64,000 nucleotides of DNA from Escherichia coli. Lineage in GTDB: Bacteria; Pseudomonadota; Gammaproteobacteria; Enterobacterales; Enterobacteriaceae. Location: the NCBI RefSeq assembly GCF_003790525.1, contig NZ_CP033632.1. The stretch is one strand, 5' to 3'. A program made the translations under genes and the position numbers. Positions within the stretch are counted from its first letter, which is position 1, and each line of letters begins with the position of its first letter. A model generated the notes under the pieces. It made no database searches, had not been told where the DNA came from, and saw only the letters and a list, made by a program, of their open reading frames with translations. Positions 29,934 through 39,140 of the stretch are shown in pieces.

Positions 29934-30109
29934 TGCGTGTGGCATGTATCGGCTTGTTACCGTACCCGACTCGTTTTTGGGCTTCTGCGCTAATTGCAAA
30001 GCCGTATGTCCTGATGGCTGACAACATCATCCCGGCACCAAAGCGCCGCCATACCGGTATTGCAGCGGCACGACGAGCAGCAAAGAGACGCAGGAGAGCA
30101 AAGCGATGA
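29933..30109 (+). CDS. Small basic protein, 58 aa (below the ORF-track threshold)
   Basis: Manual translation [58 protein letters not shown]; overlaps neighbours at both ends. Confidence 0.4.
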   Translation: MRVACIGLLPYPTRFWASALIAKPYVLMADNIIPAPKRRHTGIAAARRAAKRRRRAKR

Positions 30110-30282
30110 AAAACCGTAAGGCAAAACGACTTTTTTTACAGCGACCTGTGCGTGTGGTGGAGCTGGTTATTAGCAACCATAAGATAGCGGTACTCCATCC
30201 ATTTGGTCAGGTGGCTTTTGCCGCAAAGCGTAAGCCTACTGCGTCACAGAACAGGCGGAAGAAAGGGTACGCAGTAAGATGA
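30106..30282 (+). CDS. Small basic protein, 58 aa, starting MKNRKAK
   Basis: Manual translation; ATGA overlap with the next gene; paralog of 30279..30467. Confidence 0.4.
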   Translation: MKNRKAKRLFLQRPVRVVELVISNHKIAVLHPFGQVAFAAKRKPTASQNRRKKGYAVR

Positions 30283-30467
30283 AAAACCGTAAAGCAAAGA
30301 TTCTGTTAGTTCGTAGAAACGCTCCTGGCGTCTGGCAGTGGGTGAGACTCAGCAACCGACGGATGGGGTTGATGAAATATTACGGGATGATGGATTGTGG
30401 TTTTTGCAAAAAGCCCAGCGCGGCGCAAAACCGCTGGAAAAACCATTTGCGCACTAAAGGAGAGTGA
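30279..30467 (+). CDS. Small basic protein, 62 aa, starting MKNRKAK
   Basis: ORF-track entry; tandem paralog of the preceding gene. Confidence 0.45.
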   Translation: MKNRKAKILLVRRNAPGVWQWVRLSNRRMGLMKYYGMMDCGFCKKPSAAQNRWKNHLRTKGE

Positions 30468-30468
30468 T

Positions 30469-30984
30469 ATGGCGTTAACACACCGCGAACTCTGTCAGAT
30501 TGCGTACAAGTTCCTTAAGCGCAACGGGTTCAAGGTTTGTTTTCATGACCGCTTTATAGCTGTAACCAGTACCGGAGAACAGCCAGATGCTATGGGGTTC
30601 AGAAATTCAGCATCATGCCTGATAGAGGCGAAGTGTTCTCGTGCTGATTTGTTGGCAGATAGAAAAAAGCGTTTTCGTAAAAATCCGTCTCTTGGAATGG
30701 GCGACTGGCGATTCTTTATTAGTGAGCCGGGAATTATTTCAATTGAGGATTTACCACCTGGCTGGGGATTACTTCACGTTGTTAACGGAAGAGTACGGAA
30801 AGTACATGGGTGGCCCAAGGGTAATTGCTGTTGGGGTAACCCTGAAGATAAACCTTTTATTGGGAATAAGCAGGTTGAATGCGATTACATGTTATCTGCA
30901 TTAAGGCGCATGGAGTTGAGAGGGCACCTTAATGAAATATATGACGGTGTAATTGTTAATAAGAAAGAAGGAAACGCGGCATGA
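30469..30984 (+). CDS. PD-(D/E)xK-type nuclease-like protein (about 171 aa from MALTHRELCQ)
   Basis: Motif ...EQPDAMGF...CLIEAKCS... (PD, then E-x-K); AAGGAG Shine-Dalgarno 9 bp upstream. Confidence 0.5.
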   Translation: MALTHRELCQIAYKFLKRNGFKVCFHDRFIAVTSTGEQPDAMGFRNSASCLIEAKCSRADLLADRKKRFRKNPSLGMGDWRFFISEPGIISIEDLPPGWGLLHVVNGRVRKVHGWPKGNCCWGNPEDKPFIGNKQVECDYMLSALRRMELRGHLNEIYDGVIVNKKEGNAA

Positions 30985-31838
30985 TCACTATTACCAAAGA
31001 GCGACTGCTGACAATCAAGCAGTGGCGCGAAACATACGGACCTGATAGCAACGTTGTACTGCCAGCAGAAGAAGCGGAAGAACTGGCGCGTATCGTGCTG
31101 GCATCGCTGGAAGCAGAGCCTGTTCTGTATCAGTCCTGCACTCGCCCCACCTGGAATAGCGGTGTTCCGTGGACGGAATGGAAAGAACGTAGTCGTGAGT
31201 GCTACGAAGACGATTTGCGTTTTACAGACACGCCTGACCATGCCGGTTGGATATACAAATGTCGAAAACTATATACCACTCCGCCAGCGCCGATAGCGTT
31301 AGAGGCCATTGAAAACGCAATTGAATACATTCGTAGTATCGCTTTTCACATCGATGAAGACGATTACCACGGCAAACATATTGCGTATTTCATGCGACAA
31401 GCATTGGCCTGGCTGGAAGGGCATTCATGCAGCGACGACAGACTGGGTAAAGCCGACAATCAACCAGTACGCGGCAACCAGGCTGCCGAATCCAATCGCG
31501 GTAATGAGTGGACCGGCAATCCTGATATTGATAACGCAATCATCATGCTCGACCGCATAGATACGGCGGAAAGTTACGATGATGACCGTATTGAGGCTGT
31601 TAAGGCTGTTTTGCGTAGACTGGCAGGCAACTCTCCGGTAACTCCGGATGGTTGGATAAGCTGTAGTGAGCGAATGCCCCCTCAAGATGATTGGATTTTA
31701 ATTTATTCAAAGCACGGCGAGTATATGGCAGGACAGGTACAAGGGGAATACGTGGAGTTGAGCGACGGCACTTTATCGTGGTTAGGGAACGCCTTGTTCT
31801 GGATGCCGCTACCAGAACCGCCGCAGGAGGCGAAATGA
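30981..31838 (+). CDS. Phage protein with a DUF551-like C-terminal domain, 285 aa
   Basis: C-terminal GWISCSERMPPQDDWILIY...LSWLGNALFWMPLPEPP resembles DUF551. Confidence 0.5.
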   Translation: MITITKERLLTIKQWRETYGPDSNVVLPAEEAEELARIVLASLEAEPVLYQSCTRPTWNSGVPWTEWKERSRECYEDDLRFTDTPDHAGWIYKCRKLYTTPPAPIALEAIENAIEYIRSIAFHIDEDDYHGKHIAYFMRQALAWLEGHSCSDDRLGKADNQPVRGNQAAESNRGNEWTGNPDIDNAIIMLDRIDTAESYDDDRIEAVKAVLRRLAGNSPVTPDGWISCSERMPPQDDWILIYSKHGEYMAGQVQGEYVELSDGTLSWLGNALFWMPLPEPPQEAK

Positions 31839-32095
31839 TGGATGTAAAAGAGAAGGTTTTGCAGGTGATGCGTTCCCGGGCTGCCCTGCAAGATAAAGCT
31901 CTCGGCGGGGAATATCCATTCAGGATGGCAACCTGGAATCTGCGGTTGGCAATGGAGAAGGAATTTCCTGATGAAGAATGGCGTTCGGCAGATTTGCGCA
32001 AAATTCTTATGGAGCTGGCTAAAGACGGAACAGTATCCAAAGATACCCATGCCAGCCGGATTGGTCAGGCGGTATGGAGACTGGAGGTGAGGTAA
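31835..32095 (+). CDS. Hypothetical protein, 86 aa
   Basis: ATGA coupling to the upstream gene. Confidence 0.45.
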   Translation: MMDVKEKVLQVMRSRAALQDKALGGEYPFRMATWNLRLAMEKEFPDEEWRSADLRKILMELAKDGTVSKDTHASRIGQAVWRLEVR

Positions 32096-32376
32096 TGGCT
32101 AACCTGCAACTTGCCGTTAAAGGTGAATACTTCGATGCCATGATTCGCGGGGAGAAAACGGAAGAGTATCGCCTGTGTAATGACTACTGGAATAAGCGCC
32201 TCGTTAACCGTAAGTATTACCGCCTGATTATCACAAAGGGATATCCGAAGCGCGAAGACTTCAGTCGCAGAATTGACGTCCCGTATAACGGATATGAAAT
32301 AAAAACAATCACACATCCACACTTCGGTGATAAACCGGTAAAGGTGTTCGCGATAAAAGTGAAGATTAATAGCTAA
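32095..32376 (+). CDS. ASCH/PUA-like small protein, 93 aa
   Basis: N-terminal KGEYFDAMIRGEKTEEYR motif typical of ASCH-type domains. Confidence 0.45.
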   Translation: MANLQLAVKGEYFDAMIRGEKTEEYRLCNDYWNKRLVNRKYYRLIITKGYPKREDFSRRIDVPYNGYEIKTITHPHFGDKPVKVFAIKVKINS

Positions 32377-32399
32377 ATTTCAATTAACACGGAGTAATT

Positions 32400-32693
32400 A
32401 TGTGGCGCGGTAATAATCATGGCGGAAGTCAGATGATACTTACCGAATATACGTTCGACCACAAAACCAATAAATCACGTTCAGTATATTTGCTTCGGCA
32501 CAATAGCCGCGTAAGAAATACCGTTCTGGAGCAAAATCTGACCGTTGAAATGGATAATTTGGGAAACTTCAAGCCAACAATATCGCTTGATGATTTTCCG
32601 TGTGGTTTAAGCGAAAGAGAAGCAATGCTGAAATTAGCAGAATGGCTACAAAGATTAAGCATTGCTATTGAAGATAACTGGTCTGAACCTTAA
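32400..32693 (+). CDS. Hypothetical protein, 97 aa
   Basis: ORF with GGAG Shine-Dalgarno. Confidence 0.45.
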   Translation: MWRGNNHGGSQMILTEYTFDHKTNKSRSVYLLRHNSRVRNTVLEQNLTVEMDNLGNFKPTISLDDFPCGLSEREAMLKLAEWLQRLSIAIEDNWSEP

Positions 32694-32699
32694 ATTAAT

Positions 32700-33074
32700 A
32701 TGATGACACTAAAACATTTTCTTGACCGCCCATTATGGGCGGCAGCCGCAGGCTATGACTTTAATTATATGGATTGCATGTCTTATACTGCCAATGCATA
32801 CGACCATTCGTTCAGCCTGCTGTTTAATTCTTTAAGAATATTGCCGGAAACAGAAGTTGGAGAGCTTCATTTATGGATATTGGGCTTTATCGCGGCTGGA
32901 GTTGGTATTGCCGTATGGCCTTTTATTTTCTGGCTGGTGGCTGTTGTAGTGTGGTTTAAGTGCAAGACGTACCGGAAAAAGTATTTCTTAGGTGATGGAA
33001 TGACTGATATTGCCAAAATGAACATTGAAAAATGGACTAAGGAATGTGAAAAGAAATGGCGCAAAAAGAAATGA
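32700..33074 (+). CDS. Membrane protein, 124 aa, basic C-terminus
   Basis: Hydrophobic stretch LWILGFIAAGVGIAVWPFIFWLVAVVVWF. Confidence 0.5.
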   Translation: MMTLKHFLDRPLWAAAAGYDFNYMDCMSYTANAYDHSFSLLFNSLRILPETEVGELHLWILGFIAAGVGIAVWPFIFWLVAVVVWFKCKTYRKKYFLGDGMTDIAKMNIEKWTKECEKKWRKKK

Positions 33075-33730
33075 CTACTCTAACGACAGCATACTTACAG
33101 CAATTGGTATTTTTTGCAGGCGAGGCTACTTGTCATCCTGACGCAAACTATTTATTGGAATTTGAGAGGTTAGCGTCACCCGGTATCGTTCTGGAACTGG
33201 CCCAACAGGTGCTGGCCTTGAGACAAAAAGAGCAACATGAAAGTAATACGTGTAGATTGAATTTTGAGCAGTGGCTGGAACAGCAACGCGGGAAAATCGA
33301 TGTGGACTGTGGTTGTGTGTCCACTGAAACATTCATGCACTGGCTGCGGGTAGCTTACGAGGCTGGCAACTATCCGGATATTCCGGATAGTTCGGTGCCA
33401 GCGCCAGGAAAGGGCGTCACCGGTGAACGTATCCGCATTAAGCCGCATGTTTATCGCGAACTGGTTAACCGTCTCCACGATACAGCGATCAAGTGTGCTG
33501 GCACTCAGCAATTACGAGAAAGAATTAGCCGTGTTTTGGGCGACGTTATTACGCCATATCATCATAAACAAGCCGAGAAAAGCGGTCTGGAAAGGTGTCA
33601 TCTTGAGGCAGCATTAAACATTAAGCCGGGGCATACGCTAGGCATTATTGATGCACTGTTGGTTCATAAGATGGCCAGGGCTTTATTGTCGTTGGTGGAC
33701 GCTGGTGATACAAGCGAGGGTGAAGTATGA
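33056..33730 (+). CDS. Hypothetical protein, 224 aa
   Basis: ORF overlapping the upstream gene. Confidence 0.5.
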   Translation: MAQKEMTTLTTAYLQQLVFFAGEATCHPDANYLLEFERLASPGIVLELAQQVLALRQKEQHESNTCRLNFEQWLEQQRGKIDVDCGCVSTETFMHWLRVAYEAGNYPDIPDSSVPAPGKGVTGERIRIKPHVYRELVNRLHDTAIKCAGTQQLRERISRVLGDVITPYHHKQAEKSGLERCHLEAALNIKPGHTLGIIDALLVHKMARALLSLVDAGDTSEGEV

Positions 33731-34089
33731 GAGTTGCAGATCACATCAAACACCTTGAAAGAATTATCGAAAACGGTGAACTCTTAAGAGATCAGATGAG
33801 ACGCACGGCAGAAGCCAGGGAGGCGATAATCCGCAGTCAGGCTGGTAAATTAAAGCAATTGTCAGAGATTAACACGCTATACAAGAACAGACGTAACCGG
33901 GCGGTGATGCGGCTTCAGAAAGCACGTAATGAAATTAAATTGGTGGAGGCAAAACTGAAAAAACAGATCCAGCGTTACGATCAGCAAGATGCTTTTTATG
34001 CCGCCATCAAGGCGGCTGCTAATGAAATAGGCATCTGGAAGTTGCTGGTGGAGAAAGCAAAGACGAAGTTAAATGCCAACGAAAGCTGA
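33727..34089 (+). CDS. Hypothetical coiled-coil protein, 120 aa; last gene of the + strand operon
   Basis: ATGA coupling to the upstream gene. Confidence 0.5.
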   Translation: MRVADHIKHLERIIENGELLRDQMRRTAEAREAIIRSQAGKLKQLSEINTLYKNRRNRAVMRLQKARNEIKLVEAKLKKQIQRYDQQDAFYAAIKAAANEIGIWKLLVEKAKTKLNANES

Positions 34090-34164
34090 ACTACAGGTGC
34101 CCACCAGCACATACAGAAAATGATTGTTTCCACATCAAGGAGATTTTAATGTTTCACTGAAACA

Positions 34165-34302
34165 TTAAGTAAGCCAGTGCATAATTCCATTTTTTACTGA
34201 CCTTAAAAGCAAAATCAAAACGATGATGAGGATAATAGCCAGAATCTGGCTAATAATAGGCGCATCTAAAAATGCACTCAGGAACTGAAAAAAAGCGTTC
34301 AT
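34165..34302 (-). CDS. Small hydrophobic peptide, 45 aa (possible membrane-active toxin or holin-like peptide)
   Basis: Manual translation MNAFFQFLSAFLDAPIISQILAIILIIVLILLLRSVKNGIMHWLT; below the ORF-track threshold. Confidence 0.3.
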   Translation of the reverse strand: MNAFFQFLSAFLDAPIISQILAIILIIVLILLLRSVKNGIMHWLT

Positions 34303-35164
34303 TCAGGTGGTTCCTTGTCAAATGTAAAGGTGCACTTGCTCACGTTGACGTAGAAACCCAACCCCTATATAGTTGGATTCGGTGAATGAAAGTCGTTAAC
34401 GTGAGCTTACGGCACATGTTTTCGGAAAAACATCAGGGAACGGCTAATTCCTTGATGCGGGTGGGGTCTGTAATGCAGACCCTATCTATTAACGTCATGA
34501 TTGCATCTCAAATTTTCTCCTTATCTTCAATTAATCTACATTCATTTCATCTGTTAGCCACCACAATATGTAGAAAATGGCCCTCTTGCAAGTGCATAAC
34601 TTTGTGGATAACTCAGGAAGGAAAAAGTGGCTTTCGCGCACCTTCGGTCAGACAAGGTGTCCGGGAAAGTCAACGCAAAGAAAAAAATTGTTAAAAATAA
34701 CGTTTGTTGGAATTGTATATTTTTATCCCCTTCAATGGTTAGCATTCTATTAACATCTTTTTTTAGAGACAGAAAAACATATCGTAACAACATATATACA
34801 GTGTTAAGCGGCGAGTATTATCCTGCGGTGGGAATTCTGGGCGCTGTTAGATTCGACTTTCTCAGCAGGATTACATCGTCAACTTGCGACGTTGCCGTAT
34901 GACTTTCGTGTAATAGGTGACAATGATGCGGCTAGTGAGTTACTTGTGAAGTTTTTCGGAAAAGGTTTTGTGGCCTCGGATCTTGATGAGCTACAGCAAC
35001 ATGAAGTGTCTAATTTGATTTTTAGCCATAGCCAATAAGCCTCCCTCCTCCATCAAGGCCACAATTTGTGACCTTAAACAATTTGTTTTCTGCTTTTTCT
35101 TATTTGAGAAAATAACGTTGTTGACAGCTAATAGGCTCGTTGTTGTTATACATGCCTGTATAGA

Positions 35165-35521
35165 TTATGACCGTAAATTATTAGCGGATTTTAAGCCATA
35201 TTCACCGTTGTAGAAATTACTCATGTTCCATTCATTAGGAAGTTCTTTTCTGTCCAATGTATAGTGGCGCACGATATAACGATCTTCATCTTCTTCGATG
35301 GACAGGCGGACATAGCCAATGTGAATCACCGATACGGGCGGTGTTCGTATTGCATAGATGTCGCGGAGATATACCGGCAGCTCGACAAATGCATCAGGTG
35401 CATCTGTGATGCTCGTTTTTTCACAGTATTCATATAACGCATCGTTGATATCGTTAAGAGATTCATGATCGTATATTTCCAGGTAATTACCGCGATCGCG
35501 ATGGTACTCGATTTTAGCCAT
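35165..35521 (-). CDS. Hypothetical protein, 118 aa (second gene of a two-gene operon)
   Basis: Start codon immediately follows the stop of the upstream gene. Confidence 0.55.
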   Translation of the reverse strand: MAKIEYHRDRGNYLEIYDHESLNDINDALYEYCEKTSITDAPDAFVELPVYLRDIYAIRTPPVSVIHIGYVRLSIEEDEDRYIVRHYTLDRKELPNEWNMSNFYNGEYGLKSANNLRS

Positions 35522-36106
35522 TCAAAATCCCCTGTTATCGTTTTGCATTTCTCTAATCCGGTTCAGAACTACTTCATGCTGGACTTGGATAGCGGCTTTT
35601 TCGTTTTCAAGCCGGGCAATAGACATCTCTAATTCTTTGCTGTACCAGGCGAGCTGGGCCAGGTTCATCCGGTTGTGGTCGAGAGTTGGAGACACTTCGA
35701 CGCGATCCCTTTCTTCCTGCTTTAATGAGAAGAGATTTATCTCATCCCTTGAGGAAAATTCAGCAACAATTTCTTGTTGATGATCCGGTCGCTGCGGCAT
35801 CCTCGCCAGTATAAATGGCGGTTCTTTTGAAAACATGAATGTCGGTTCAGACCGTGTTTTTACCCAGCTTGCCTGCTGTCTTTCGGCAAGTTCACAGGCT
35901 TCATCATAGTTATCTGCCAAACAAAGCACGGATGGACGGTCCCACGCCCCACCATTCAGACAATAAACTACAATTTTCCCGTCAGGTTGTGTAACCCCAT
36001 ATGGATGGTCCCACCAGGCGTCCAGCTGAGCTTTAGAGCGTTTCTCGTTAGGAGTGCAGTCAAAATTTTTGGGCAATACAGGATCGAGAGGAATGCGGGC
36101 AGGCAT
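35522..36106 (-). CDS. Hypothetical protein, 194 aa, C-terminal coiled coil (first gene of the operon)
   Basis: AAGGA Shine-Dalgarno 9 bp upstream; divergent from humD. Confidence 0.55.
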   Translation of the reverse strand: MPARIPLDPVLPKNFDCTPNEKRSKAQLDAWWDHPYGVTQPDGKIVVYCLNGGAWDRPSVLCLADNYDEACELAERQQASWVKTRSEPTFMFSKEPPFILARMPQRPDHQQEIVAEFSSRDEINLFSLKQEERDRVEVSPTLDHNRMNLAQLAWYSKELEMSIARLENEKAAIQVQHEVVLNRIREMQNDNRGF

Positions 36107-36241
36107 AGCTAATTCCTTATTAACTGATTGGCAACGAGGTTACGCTGATCCGTTGGTGATGAATAGTAGCAAAGAGCACAAAATCATCAGCGGTGGTTGA
36201 TGTACGTAACGCGTTTGCACCAAAGGTGTCTCTTTAATGTA

Positions 36242-36261
36242 TACTGTATAAATGAACAGTA
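36242..36261. promoter_or_regulatory. LexA (SOS) box tactgtataaatgaacagta upstream of humD
   Basis: CTGT-N8-ACAG consensus read directly, 20 bp before the humD start. Confidence 0.8.
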
Positions 36262-36280
36262 TTATTGAGGTGAAAACGCT

Positions 36281-36670
36281 ATGGGCTTCCCTTCTCCTGC
36301 GGCGGATTATGTTGAAAGCCGAATTTCTCTTGATCAGCAACTAATCAGGCATCCATCAGCAACCTACTTCATGCGGGCAGTTGATAGCCATCACCGTGAG
36401 GGAATATTGCAGGGTGCTTTGCTGGTGGTTGATTCCTCGCTTACTCCGGTTGATGGTTCTCTGCTTGTGTGCGCTATGGAGGGTGAATATCGCATAAAGA
36501 GATACAGGAAGTATCCGCGCCAGCACCTGGAGGATTTAAGCACCGGGAAGAAAGAGGCGTTACCAGTAGATGACGATGGATGCACGGGCAGTAATGCTGT
36601 TTTTGGTGTGATCACTCATGTCATCAATGATGCCAGAAGTGGGGAGTTTGATGATTGTCCGGTTATTTAA
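36281..36670 (+). CDS. humD: HumD (UmuD'-like, LexA/S24 peptidase-type)
   Basis: 129-aa translation with S24-like features; LexA box upstream; position before phd-doc as in P1. Confidence 0.8.
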   Translation: MGFPSPAADYVESRISLDQQLIRHPSATYFMRAVDSHHREGILQGALLVVDSSLTPVDGSLLVCAMEGEYRIKRYRKYPRQHLEDLSTGKKEALPVDDDGCTGSNAVFGVITHVINDARSGEFDDCPVI

Positions 36671-36742
36671 GCTGCAAAGGGCTGGTGCTTTATGCCTGTG
36701 AAGTTTATAATTGTGTACACATAACGAGTACACGAGGTGTTT

Positions 36743-36964
36743 ATGCAATCCATTAACTTCCGTACCGCGCGTGGCAACCTTTCTGAAGTGCTCAACAATG
36801 TTGAAGCCGGGGAAGAGGTTGAAATCACCCGCAGAGGCCGTGAGCCAGCAGTAATTGTCAGCAAGGCTACTTTCGAAGCCTACAAAAAAGCGGCGCTGGA
36901 TGCTGAATTTGCATCCCTGTTTGACACCCTGGACTCCACCAACAAGGAACTGGTTAACCGATAA
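36743..36964 (+). CDS. phd: Phd antitoxin, 73 aa
   Basis: Translation [73 protein letters not shown]. Confidence 0.9.
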
Positions 36965-37344
36965 TGAGGCATATATCACCGGAAGAACTTATTGCGCTTC
37001 ATGATGCGAATATAAGCCGCTACGGCGGCCTGCCGGGAATGTCTGATCCGGGTAGGGCAGAGGCCATTATCGGGAGAGTTCAGGCCAGAGTTGCCTACGA
37101 AGAGATCACCGACCTTTTCGAAGTCTCTGCCACCTACCTGGTGGCTACAGCGAGAGGGCATATATTCAATGATGCCAATAAGCGTACCGCGCTAAACAGT
37201 GCGCTGCTATTTCTACGCCGTAACGGGGTGCAGGTATTTGATTCACCTGAACTGGCAGACCTTACCGTAGGCGCTGCGACTGGCGAGATATCTGTATCTT
37301 CTGTCGCCGACACGTTACGTAGATTGTATGGTTCTGCGGAGTAG
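36964..37344 (+). CDS. doc: Doc toxin, 126 aa
   Basis: Translation [43 protein letters not shown]...; overlaps the phd stop. Confidence 0.9.
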
Positions 37345-37348
37345 ATTA

Positions 37349-37528
37349 ATGGCACGCAAATACAACAAGTTGTCCCGTGAAGCGTTAAAGATGCTTCTTG
37401 ATGGCGTGAGTCGCCGCAAGGTAAAGCAATACCTGGTTGGTAAGCAAATTGGTGCCAGGACAGCTATTGCTGTGTTATGCCGTCAGGAAATGGTTGTGCT
37501 TAAACAGAGAATGCCGGGCAGCAGATAA
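37349..37528 (+). CDS. Small basic protein (P1 pdcA position)
   Basis: ORF 37328..37528 with internal start MARKYNK; assignment by position only. Confidence 0.4.
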   Translation: MARKYNKLSREALKMLLDGVSRRKVKQYLVGKQIGARTAIAVLCRQEMVVLKQRMPGSR

Positions 37529-37555
37529 AGCCCAATCAGTGATTAAAGGTGTGAT

Positions 37556-38599
37556 GTGAAAGCCGTAATTACTCCATTTGTACAGAAAGAGCTTGGCCTC
37601 GCCACGTTCAAAGTGGATCAGGAGGTCAGAAAGCTGGTGGAGGCTGGCCGTAAATTTATTATGGAGCCGGTGCCGCGTGAGTTAATCGAGCACATGGAAG
37701 ACGGCCTCGTTGTTACCGAGCAAACCATGGCAACAAATGAGGCGTTGCAGCCGTTTTTTAACAGCGATGAACTGTTTCGCCGTATTGGTGGAATTGACGC
37801 GCTGGTGGCGTGGTTGCGTAGGAAAGAGGGTCAATGCCAGGCCGCAGATCGTAGTTGGTGTGACAACCATATTGTCCACGCTGAACGAGACAATAGCGCG
37901 GTGTTGTTGTGCTGGCATCACGATAACCATTACCGGATGCGTGGTTTTAATGAGCTGAAAGAAACGCTGCACAATAATCGCGTTAACTGGATACTGGATG
38001 TCGCCCGTCAGGAAATGGGCCTTTCAAATAGCCATGATTTAAGTATTCAGGAGCTGTGCTGGTGGGCTTTCATGCGCAACATGATGCACCTGATGCCGGA
38101 AGAAGTCTGCCGCATATCAATAAATAAGATGAAGGCTACTCCGCAGGATAGCGGACCTCTGAAAGAGGCGGATATTCGCCCGTATGACGATCGCGCTACA
38201 GCATATGTTCAGATGATGGAAGAACGCGCCGCGCCGATGCGTGCAAAAGTATGCCCTGTGGATGTTGACTCCGACCCTGGCATGGCGCATTTCAAAATAC
38301 CAAAACTGCAATCGCTAAAATTACCTGAGTACATGGACTTTGTTGCTTCCCGTCCATGCTGTGGGTGTGGAGCTGCGGGAGCTGGCGCTCACATTACGCC
38401 TTATATCGTTCGTCATAGTCGATTATGCGCGCATGACATTTACGCAATTCCTCTGTGCCAGTCATGCCAGCGTGATATTGAGCGTGACCGCGATAATTGG
38501 GAGAAGACGCACGGTAGGTTGGCGATGCATCAACGATTGTTCTTTGATTACGCGCTTGGAGTGGGCGTTATCACAAGTCATTCGTCGAGTGTTAGATAA
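37556..38599 (+). CDS. Cys-rich hypothetical protein, 347 aa (P1 pdcB position)
   Basis: C-terminal Cys/His cluster ...[12 protein letters not shown]...CQSCQRD... Confidence 0.5.
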
Positions 38600-38687
38600 A
38601 ATTGCTCTAATGTATTGCTATTTCTTTAATCGAGGGTATTATATTCCACGTTGATTAGTTGACATGGGCTAATCAGTAGGTGACAGG

Positions 38688-39140
38688 ATGTTACTTAACT
38701 GGCAGGGACGCCACTTCATGGAAATAAATCACTCACGAATAACATCGTACGAGATTGCGGATTACATGATCCGCACTAAATCTCTTCTATCAGCGAAAGA
38801 ACTCGCAGCAATTCTTGAAAAGGAATACCCGCATCTGGATGTCGATAAGCGCGATGTTTATCTGCGCTTAAAGGCTATCGCTGTGTCTAAGTATTCGTCT
38901 GTTTTGATAGATGACAGTACACGCCCACGTAGATTTCAGATCCACTCTCTGAATCCTGAATTCTTTCGCCGTAGCCGCGCTCCGCGCCGGTTTGATGAAA
39001 AACTCCAGAACGAACTCTATATGACGCAGGACGAAAAGGAACGCCGGGAGCACCAGCCTTGGGTAATGGCGCGTCAACTTTTCAATAAGGTGGCCCGTCA
39101 GCACCGTCATTACGGTAATGCCACATCCGCACGTATCTGA
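38688..39140 (+). CDS. lpa: Late promoter activator Lpa-like, 150 aa
   Basis: Positioned immediately upstream of pacA as in P1; sequence not verified from memory. Confidence 0.55.
   Translation: MLLNWQGRHFMEINHSRITSYEIADYMIRTKSLLSAKELAAILEKEYPHLDVDKRDVYLRLKAIAVSKYSSVLIDDSTRPRRFQIHSLNPEFFRRSRAPRRFDEKLQNELYMTQDEKERREHQPWVMARQLFNKVARQHRHYGNATSARI

Follow-up and report, generated by a model that had tools for sequence, protein, structure and literature searches.

A candidate type I toxin–antitoxin-like module, with a putative antisense RNA and an nrdA-like promoter, in the pmgV–hot gap of P1-type phage-plasmids

The DNA stretch analyzed here, 64,000 nucleotides (nt) of the Escherichia coli contig NZ_CP033632.1 (hereafter, the window), is a P1/P7-type phage-plasmid, and it raises the question of what is encoded on the minus strand of a gap of about 650 bp on the 3′ side of pmgV (the "pmgV–hot" gap), where a first-pass annotation had noticed a short hydrophobic open reading frame (ORF) running into a palindrome. 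In P1 and P7 this gap is annotated with short plus-strand ORFs (upfM, upfN, and upfO; upf91.3 to 91.7) and a few predicted promoters, and the minus strand carries no annotation. Over positions 33700-35200, the window is 100% identical to records labeled "Punavirus P1" and 99.7% identical to phage P7. The question concerns one of the most heavily studied phages, a standard genetic tool, and P1-like phage-plasmids spread resistance genes such as blaCTX-M in Escherichia and Salmonella. The answer that we favor, and to which we give about an even chance, is that the locus may be a new type I toxin–antitoxin-like module lying outside all described families, in which the small ORF would encode the toxin and a plus-strand RNA complementary to the leader of its mRNA would act as the antitoxin.

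The ORF is present on the minus strand at 34165..34302, with an ATG start and the translation first reported for it (45 amino acids [aa]; MNAFFQFLSAFLDAPIISQILAIILIIVLILLLRSVKNGIMHWLT). This candidate toxin has an amphipathic N-terminal segment, a D/N-A-P motif, and one hydrophobic helix (residues 16-33, IISQILAIILIIVLILLL) in which 16 of the 18 residues are I, V, L, F, C, M, or A, followed by a basic and aromatic C-terminal tail, R-S-V-K-N-G-I-M-H-W-L-T (RSVKNGIMHWLT). A Shine-Dalgarno sequence, AAGGA (34312..34316, minus strand), lies 9 nt 5′ of the ATG within a conserved CUUUACAUUUGAC(A/G)AGGA stretch. The frame was also said to converge with the upstream plus-strand operon, and the pmgV-like ORF, which ends at 34089 on the plus strand, does face it. 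The description of the frame as unannotated is accurate for the GenBank and RefSeq phage records of P1 and P7, where plus-strand upfM or upf91.3 occupies the position, and is inaccurate elsewhere: on some plasmids RefSeq carries the same ORF as hypothetical protein WP_000123562.1, and diverged alleles have also been deposited under "hypothetical protein." By itself, a 45-aa ORF at this site is not significant, given that 8.5 kb is overlapped by as many as 105 ORFs with a length of 30 aa or more.

Comparison with relatives is more informative. Homologs of the ORF (about 88 loci) fall into four diverged clades, all on P1-like elements of Escherichia, Salmonella, and Shigella: clade 1 comprises the window, P1, and P7; clade 2, pUTAK-6-1 and its relatives (77% nucleotide identity); clade 3, loci L062-L065; and clade 4, loci L066-L070. 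No relatives beyond these P1-like clades came from two word-index searches, an exhaustive HMMER profile search, or scans of viral contigs (three), genome contigs, and metagenomes (one each), with 0 in 100,044 species-representative genomes. The same ATG opens the frame in all four clades and the same stop closes it in clades 1 to 3, where the ORF has exactly 45 codons and zero indels, whereas its flanks have several, at a nucleotide divergence within the ORF of 22-27% between clades. The Shine-Dalgarno sequence is kept as GAC(A/G)AGGA in all four clades while the bases flanking it vary, and the hydrophobic helix is retained throughout. Of 89 loci, 87 have a peptide that is intact or altered at its C-terminus only; the other two reflect a contig-end run-off or a missing anchor motif. 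Identity between clades is 0.78 over codons 2-33 versus 0.39 in an unconstrained leader segment, and the dN/dS of the ORF (ratio of nonsynonymous to synonymous substitution rates, Nei-Gojobori method [NG86]) is 0.26-0.41. No ORF of the region other than this one is kept in every clade; upfM, upfN, and two leader upstream ORFs (uORFs) are lost in at least one. The persistence of the ORF, its Shine-Dalgarno sequence, and its helix across four clades lends comparative support to the first-pass view of a real small membrane-peptide gene, and we consider it probable that the ORF is translated. The statistical coding signal is modest. In one clade pair, the open frame and the hydrophobic helix are retained jointly at a P value of about 0.03, and the pattern of substitutions over the three codon positions (12/8/13, also one pair) is uninformative. 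We do not claim strong purifying selection, because the excess of synonymous changes is only marginal against randomized substitutions, as detailed below.

Several small-ORF alleles carry foreign or frameshifted C-termini (locus L080 and proteins P0005, P0002, P0001, and P0006). Two independent alleles end in ...VMTPTY, and another runs into sequence resembling an insertion sequence (IS), a pattern suggesting that insertions or frameshifts have recurred at the 3′ end of the ORF. In clade 4 (L066:3001-3321, protein P0008), indels fuse the small ORF to the leader and to a leader uORF in a single 106-aa frame that gene callers give as one protein. The cassette of this clade is flanked by hot and an H-NS-like gene, with TsiV and VRR_NUC genes close by.

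Conservation at the locus is highest outside the ORF, in a segment upstream of it. This segment is a near-consensus sigma-70 promoter on the plus strand (34345..34373; TTGACG-17-TATAGT, 10/12 matches; "PupfN" in the P1 annotation), with a mean between-clade identity of 0.92 and with hexamers and spacing that are invariant in all haplotypes of the four clades. We regard it as the candidate promoter of an antisense small RNA of about 110 nt with three stem-loops, predicted to span 34380..34492 on the plus strand and to be complementary to the part of the ORF mRNA leader that lies 78-190 nt 5′ of the start codon. The first-pass annotation had proposed looking for an overlapping antisense transcript; a conserved candidate gene for one is present, but it overlaps the 5′ leader rather than the ORF or the palindrome. 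The minimum free energy of the small RNA is −43.2 kcal/mol, compared with −26.1 for shuffled sequences (z = −5.3; none of 200 shuffles folds as well). In the consensus structure of eight distinct sequences, 95.7% of cells are paired and three pairs have changed on both sides, a number matched by 3 of 500 shuffles, and sliding the partners gives 33-51% pairing. Substitutions between clades fall in loops or spacers or are compensatory. The RNA would end in a terminator-like hairpin (34459..34487, plus strand) of 13 bp, G-U pairs included, followed by UAUCUAUU (UAUCUUUU in clade 3), and compensatory changes (U-A to C-G, G-C to A-U) occur in this hairpin. In several places the small RNA has G-U pairs that would become A-C in a transcript of the minus strand, and on this basis the terminator extension and hairpin 2 can be assigned to the plus-strand RNA. 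Rfam searches returned no match at an E value of ≤1 over 30000-39000 and two chance-level hits (E > 8) over 34100-34620.

On the minus strand, the small ORF is preceded by a segment of host origin. Positions 34573-34701 (about 130 bp) are about 95% identical to the ypaB-nrdA intergenic region of E. coli (in 5,425 of 5,426 complete genomes) and are a host promoter captured by P1-type elements and conserved in all four clades. The direction of nrdA in the captured segment is that of the minus strand, toward the small ORF. The nrdA-like promoter (34563..34611, minus strand) has a −35 hexamer, TTGCAA (34591..34586), a −10 hexamer, TATTGT (34568..34563), with the same spacing as its counterpart TATCTT in nrdA, and two DnaA boxes, TTATGCACT (34599..34591) and TTATCCACA (34611..34603). 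The −35 hexamer, the −10 hexamer as TAnTGT, and both DnaA boxes are retained in the four clades. The labels "nrdA-like promoter" and "dnaA box" already stand on the complementary strand in a 1993 GenBank record, M95666, and the P1 RefSeq record notes two DnaA boxes. Two other forms of control were considered and rejected on inspection by eye: the promoter sequences of the four clades have no conserved LexA box, and the resemblance of CCCCTATATAG to an NrdR box is unconvincing.

A transcript from this promoter would be about 420 nt long (34136..34555, minus strand; both ends are predicted), with a leader of about 250 nt, the ORF, a 3′ hairpin, and a fold-back element. Its predicted fold has a z score of −4.3. 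The overlap of the antisense RNA with this mRNA depends on the mRNA starting at the nrdA-like promoter, near 34555. Within the leader, a 12-bp stem (34339..34405, minus strand) pairs CUCACGUUAACG (34405..34394) with CGUCAACGUGAG (34350..34339) and encloses a 10-bp inner hairpin; since one of its arms lies upstream of the start of the plus-strand RNA, it can form only in a minus-strand transcript. This outer stem (helix 2) is 100% paired in 17 sequences, with one compensatory pair and with G-U pairs that would be A-C mismatches on the plus strand, and helix 3 is 98.8% paired. Over all minus-strand helices, 96.4% of cells are paired and five pairs have changed on both sides, a number reached by none of 500 shuffles. 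Such minus-strand-specific structure points to a functional transcript running toward the small ORF.

The two ends of the predicted mRNA may pair with each other. Near the 5′ end, a conserved Shine-Dalgarno-like UAAGGAG is joined to a mini start-stop ORF (34504..34523, minus strand), which reads AUG-CAA-UCA-UGA in the window, AUG-UAA in clades 2 and 4, and GUG-UAA in clade 3. It sits just 5′ of the region that the small RNA would bind and is a possible ribosome standby site as well as a possible 5′ fold-back partner. At the 3′ end, just beyond the palindrome, the element UCUCCUUG (34143..34136, minus strand) is the predicted partner of UAAGGAGA (34523..34516). In an RNAalifold prediction over 17 sequences, this 5′-3′ fold-back (helix 1) has 94.9% of cells paired and two pairs changed on both sides, and in clade 3 AAGGAGA/UCUCCUU has become GGGGG/CCCCC, both sides having changed together. 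The two leader uORFs (21 and 25 aa) were considered as mok-like genes and rejected; between clades 1 and 2 they show nonsynonymous changes only, and in clade 3 they are lost.

The plus-strand ORFs at 34272-34694 (upfM, upfN, and upfO in P1; upf91.3 to 91.7 in P7) have frames broken by indels and lengths that differ between clades. They are probably annotation artifacts over an RNA locus. If so, the annotation of the pmgV–hot region would need to be corrected.

In another reading, the RNAs are functional and the ORF is untranslated, being open by chance in T-rich sequence or through constraint at the RNA level. The plus-strand RNA would then be a leader or attenuator, or the promoter a lysogenic promoter, for hot (DNA polymerase III theta), or the RNA would act in trans. 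This reading, which we hold to be unlikely, draws on the position of hot, which follows on the plus strand in clades 1 (P1-type), 2, 3, and 4, and on the rarity with which gene callers call the small ORF. It also draws on the imperfect U-tract of the terminator, on the marginal synonymous excess, which is given below, and on the share of random mutation sets (about 38-41%) in which the frame stays open in a single pairwise comparison. It sits poorly with the conservation of the ORF, its ATG, and its Shine-Dalgarno sequence in four clades, with indels in the flanks and none in the ORF of clades 1 to 3, and with the retained hydrophobic character of the peptide. Structure specific to the minus strand indicates a functional transcript toward the ORF, and the nrdA-like promoter is aimed at it. 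The cassette is, moreover, intact in the lineage of the window, which has lost hot.

What, then, of the palindrome? It had been described as perfect and 19 bp long; it is perfect, and it is longer than described, with 11-nt arms, TTAATGTTTCA and TGAAACATTAA, around a single C (34146..34168, minus strand; 11+1+11). The stop codon of the small ORF does lie within it (TAA, 34167..34165, in the outer stem). Perfect inverted repeats with 11-nt arms are rare: by a rough estimate about 0.2 would be expected by chance, and two others occur in the 64-kb window among the matches listed. One could suppose that the palindrome itself is the functional feature, either a (bidirectional) terminator of the converging pmgT-pmgV operon or a protein-binding operator, and that its overlap with the ORF is incidental. 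A perfect repeat placed 57 nt beyond the pmgV stop would suit such a role, as would a fold of about −8 kcal/mol on both strands (−7.8 and −8.0 kcal/mol) and a half-site with three extra copies at one mismatch, making 5 matches in total versus 0.82 expected. As an intrinsic (Rho-independent) terminator, however, the hairpin is weak and AU-rich, with G-C at 2 of 10 stem pairs; it is followed by GUAAGCC on the plus strand and AAAAUCUCC on the minus strand, with no U-tract on either, and the terminator scan made no call. As an operator it fares no better, since the half-site is not conserved in the other clades and the few extra copies sit within coding sequence. A 1-nt deletion interrupts the palindrome at about 16 of 51 loci (about a third of those in clade 1), and its sequence is not conserved in clades 2 to 4. 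In clade 2 the stem forms on the ORF strand only (−6.2 kcal/mol versus no stem), by way of one compensatory pair and G-U pairs, even though pmgV is absent there. We find it very improbable that the palindrome is the functional center of the locus.

Between clades, two stem pairs of the palindrome helix have changed on both sides. A conserved hairpin specific to the minus strand was also considered; it holds for clade 2 and is limited in scope, as the hairpin of clades 3 and 4 is weak or different. The palindrome is best regarded as a 3′ hairpin that the ORF transcript has in some clades only, neither a terminator of the upstream operon nor a regulatory center, and as peripheral to the module. 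A block at 34100-34126 (plus strand, CCCACCAGCACATACAGAAAATGATTG) is kept in all clades; it marks the left edge of the cassette, lies 3′ of the palindrome on the ORF strand, and might hold the 3′ end of the ORF mRNA. Another perfect inverted repeat, at 33368-33392 inside an ORF (33056-33730), has 11-nt arms, AACTATCCGGA and TCCGGATAGTT, that are 3 nt apart.

What the sequences show is how the locus is built, how it is conserved, the support for RNA structure, and the orientation of the homology to the nrdA promoter. Taking the favored reading of the locus as a type I toxin–antitoxin-like module, we infer that both RNAs are transcribed, that the peptide is translated and toxic, and that the antisense RNA represses it. 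A weak promoter copied from host nrdA and bearing DnaA boxes would drive a minus-strand mRNA from about 34555, which would carry a structured leader of about 250 nt and encode the 45-residue single-helix membrane peptide (34302..34165). From within the leader, the strong and constitutive-looking plus-strand promoter (34345-34373) would produce the three-hairpin RNA of about 110 nt, whose match to the leader is perfect. Once paired, the two RNAs would no longer allow peptide synthesis, through cleavage of the duplex, through blocked ribosome loading at the upstream Shine-Dalgarno/start-stop site, or both, and the fold-back and the stop-codon hairpin might help to hold the full-length mRNA inert and stable. 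Upon loss of the prophage or a drop in the antisense RNA, the peptide would be made and would damage the membrane. The outcome would be a second addiction module, or an abortive-defense module, 2.4 kb from phd-doc.

Several points weigh against this proposal. The minus-strand promoter is weak by consensus (8/12), and a generic promoter scan did not call it. The terminator tail of the small RNA is an imperfect U-tract, so that the plus-strand RNA could instead read through it and serve hot as a leader. The ribosome-binding site of the ORF lies outside the stretch covered by the antisense RNA, and trans pairing between the small RNA and the ribosome-binding region, which we considered and rejected, gives −30.1 kcal/mol versus a shuffled mean of −30.2. 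Random re-placement of the substitutions under the observed transition bias leaves only a marginal excess of synonymous changes, with P values of 0.19, 0.09, and 0.04 in three clade pairs. With only four closely related clades, the covariation support comes from few independent events. In clade 4, an out-of-frame 20-nt deletion has replaced the last 12 residues of the peptide by 9 others, the first 33 being retained, and rare alleles elsewhere are frameshifted or disrupted by insertions. Finally, neither the Pfam nor the Rfam searches linked the locus to a known family of type I toxins or antitoxins.

A further reading is that the ORF encodes a real small membrane protein that is not a toxin, perhaps one that modulates a host membrane protein or acts as an exclusion factor, with the antisense RNA tuning its level or serving another target. 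Everything that argues for the reality of the ORF and of both RNAs serves this reading equally well; the peptide matches no toxin family, and the frameshifted alleles and the C-terminal replacement in clade 4 are tolerated. The layout of the locus speaks against it. In enterobacterial type I toxin–antitoxin systems, a short hydrophobic peptide is typically paired with a cis-antisense RNA, and the promoter is strong for the antisense RNA and weak for the mRNA. The locus also lies in an accessory or addiction region beside phd-doc, and in one clade a restriction system is adjacent. We judge a nontoxic membrane protein unlikely.

The surroundings of the locus describe a mobile accessory cassette in a region that is dispensable for lytic growth (PMC10695390). 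Beyond the gap, the P1 gene order is hot, lxr, humD, and phd-doc. P7 and the window instead have minus-strand Upf93.6/Upf94.2 in place of hot and lxr, and the lineage of the window keeps the cassette despite having lost hot. The cassette is found as a unit in differing contexts: in pUTAK-6-1 it adjoins a type I restriction system, and in clade 4 its neighbors are H-NS/TsiV genes. Only one late promoter, LPhot, is annotated in the vicinity, on the strand opposite to the small ORF. Upf94.2 and Upf93.6 (35165-36106, minus strand, and 36120-36280) are transcribed in the same direction as the small ORF, from a LexA-box region that they have in common with humD; a scan that reached 35300 found no terminator between them and the small ORF. 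Read-through from Upf94.2/Upf93.6 into the small ORF upon SOS induction is conceivable. Elsewhere in the window, two tandem plus-strand small ORFs (58 and 62 aa) at 30105-30467 both start with MKNRKAK and have a 21-nt direct repeat at their starts, with a spacing of 173 nt.

If the module is real, an RNA-controlled second addiction or defense system beside phd-doc would help to explain the stable maintenance of P1-like elements, and a new toxin family would join the type I class. Through its DnaA boxes, the captured nrdA promoter might tie expression of a membrane peptide to host replication status, a link that can be tested. A more specific version, that this is a type I family in which the captured nrdA promoter gates the peptide by host DnaA or replication status together with the cis-antisense RNA, strikes us as decidedly unlikely. 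If it is true, a textbook phage would carry an addiction or abortive-infection switch that senses replication.

How does the locus compare with known systems? The peptide has no usable match in Pfam, NCBIfam, PHROGs, PADLOC, or PDB (Pfam, NCBIfam, and PDB at E ≤ 10); its PHROGs matches are weak and mutually inconsistent, fall in families of unknown function, and differ from allele to allele, which indicates a bias of hydrophobic composition. At the locus, the Rfam covariance models (Sok, rdlD, IstR, Sib, OhsC, OrzO, C4, and others) gave no match either, and a literature search that left the P1 genome paper outside its scope found no description of the small ORF or the RNA. The first-pass annotation had likened the peptide to type I toxins or small holins. 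The holin comparison falls away: no holin family matches, and the neighbors are pmgV, hot/upf, and humD-phd-doc rather than lysis genes. The likeness to type I toxins survives in form though not in family. Type I toxins have been delimited as peptides of fewer than 70 aa with a transmembrane stretch and a polar or aromatic C-terminal tail (Fozo et al. 2010, PMC2887945), and the P1 peptide has all of these (45 aa, helix 16-33, and the tail). The conserved ORF, Shine-Dalgarno sequence, and helix and the candidate antisense RNA gene add to this likeness, and no known family accommodates the peptide. On its own replicon the nearest system by presumed role is phd-doc (36737-37344), likewise associated with plasmid-prophage stabilization; it is a type II system, with a protein antitoxin, and has no relation to the locus in sequence or mechanism.

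Among type I systems, the peptide most resembles, at the level of a motif only, Ldr of the E. coli ldrD-rdlD system, a short single-helix peptide with a Trp-containing basic tail, and L-(D/N)-A-P-(I/V)-(I/L)-x-x-I-L-A here corresponds to L-A-A-P-V-I-A-G-I-L-A in LdrD (58% identity over 12 columns). Rdl is likewise encoded in cis and antisense to the 5′ leader of ldr, not to its ribosome-binding site. The mechanism of Rdl is unknown (PMC8309996). The P1 peptide differs in its length (45 aa versus 35) and in its setting, a phage-plasmid locus rather than the chromosomal long direct repeats of Ldr. Membership in Ldr or Fst was rejected: neither PF13940 (Ldr_toxin) nor PF13955 (Fst_toxin) matches at E ≤ 10, with the positive controls LdrD, LdrA, and Fst scoring 94, 86, and 22.8 bits; the hhalign probability is 8%; and the Rfam rdlD model does not match.

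With hok/sok and its relatives (pnd, srnB, and flm), the locus shares a low-copy plasmid and a small putative membrane peptide, and it would also share a long structured leader, an antisense RNA from a strong promoter inside that leader, and a predicted fold-back resembling the hok fbi element. The hok mRNA has a structured leader and the fbi fold-back element. The likeness of the fold-back predicted here to fbi is only an analogy. The P1 locus differs in having no Hok_Gef domain (PF01848, E ≤ 10), no conserved mok-like frame, and no Rfam Sok match.

A third comparison concerns the site of antitoxin action. In tisB/istR-1 and zorO/orzO, the antitoxin RNA acts about 100 nt upstream of the start codon, at a ribosome standby site. 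The P1 locus differs from these in that its small RNA would be fully cis-antisense, with about 110 nt of complementarity, rather than the product of a divergent gene with about 20 nt of pairing, and in that its mRNA promoter is nrdA-like with DnaA boxes and has no conserved LexA box that we could see. It resembles them in that the antisense RNA would target the leader far upstream of the ribosome-binding site, beside a possible standby site. IstR-1 competes with standby ribosomes or triggers RNase III cleavage (PMC8309996).

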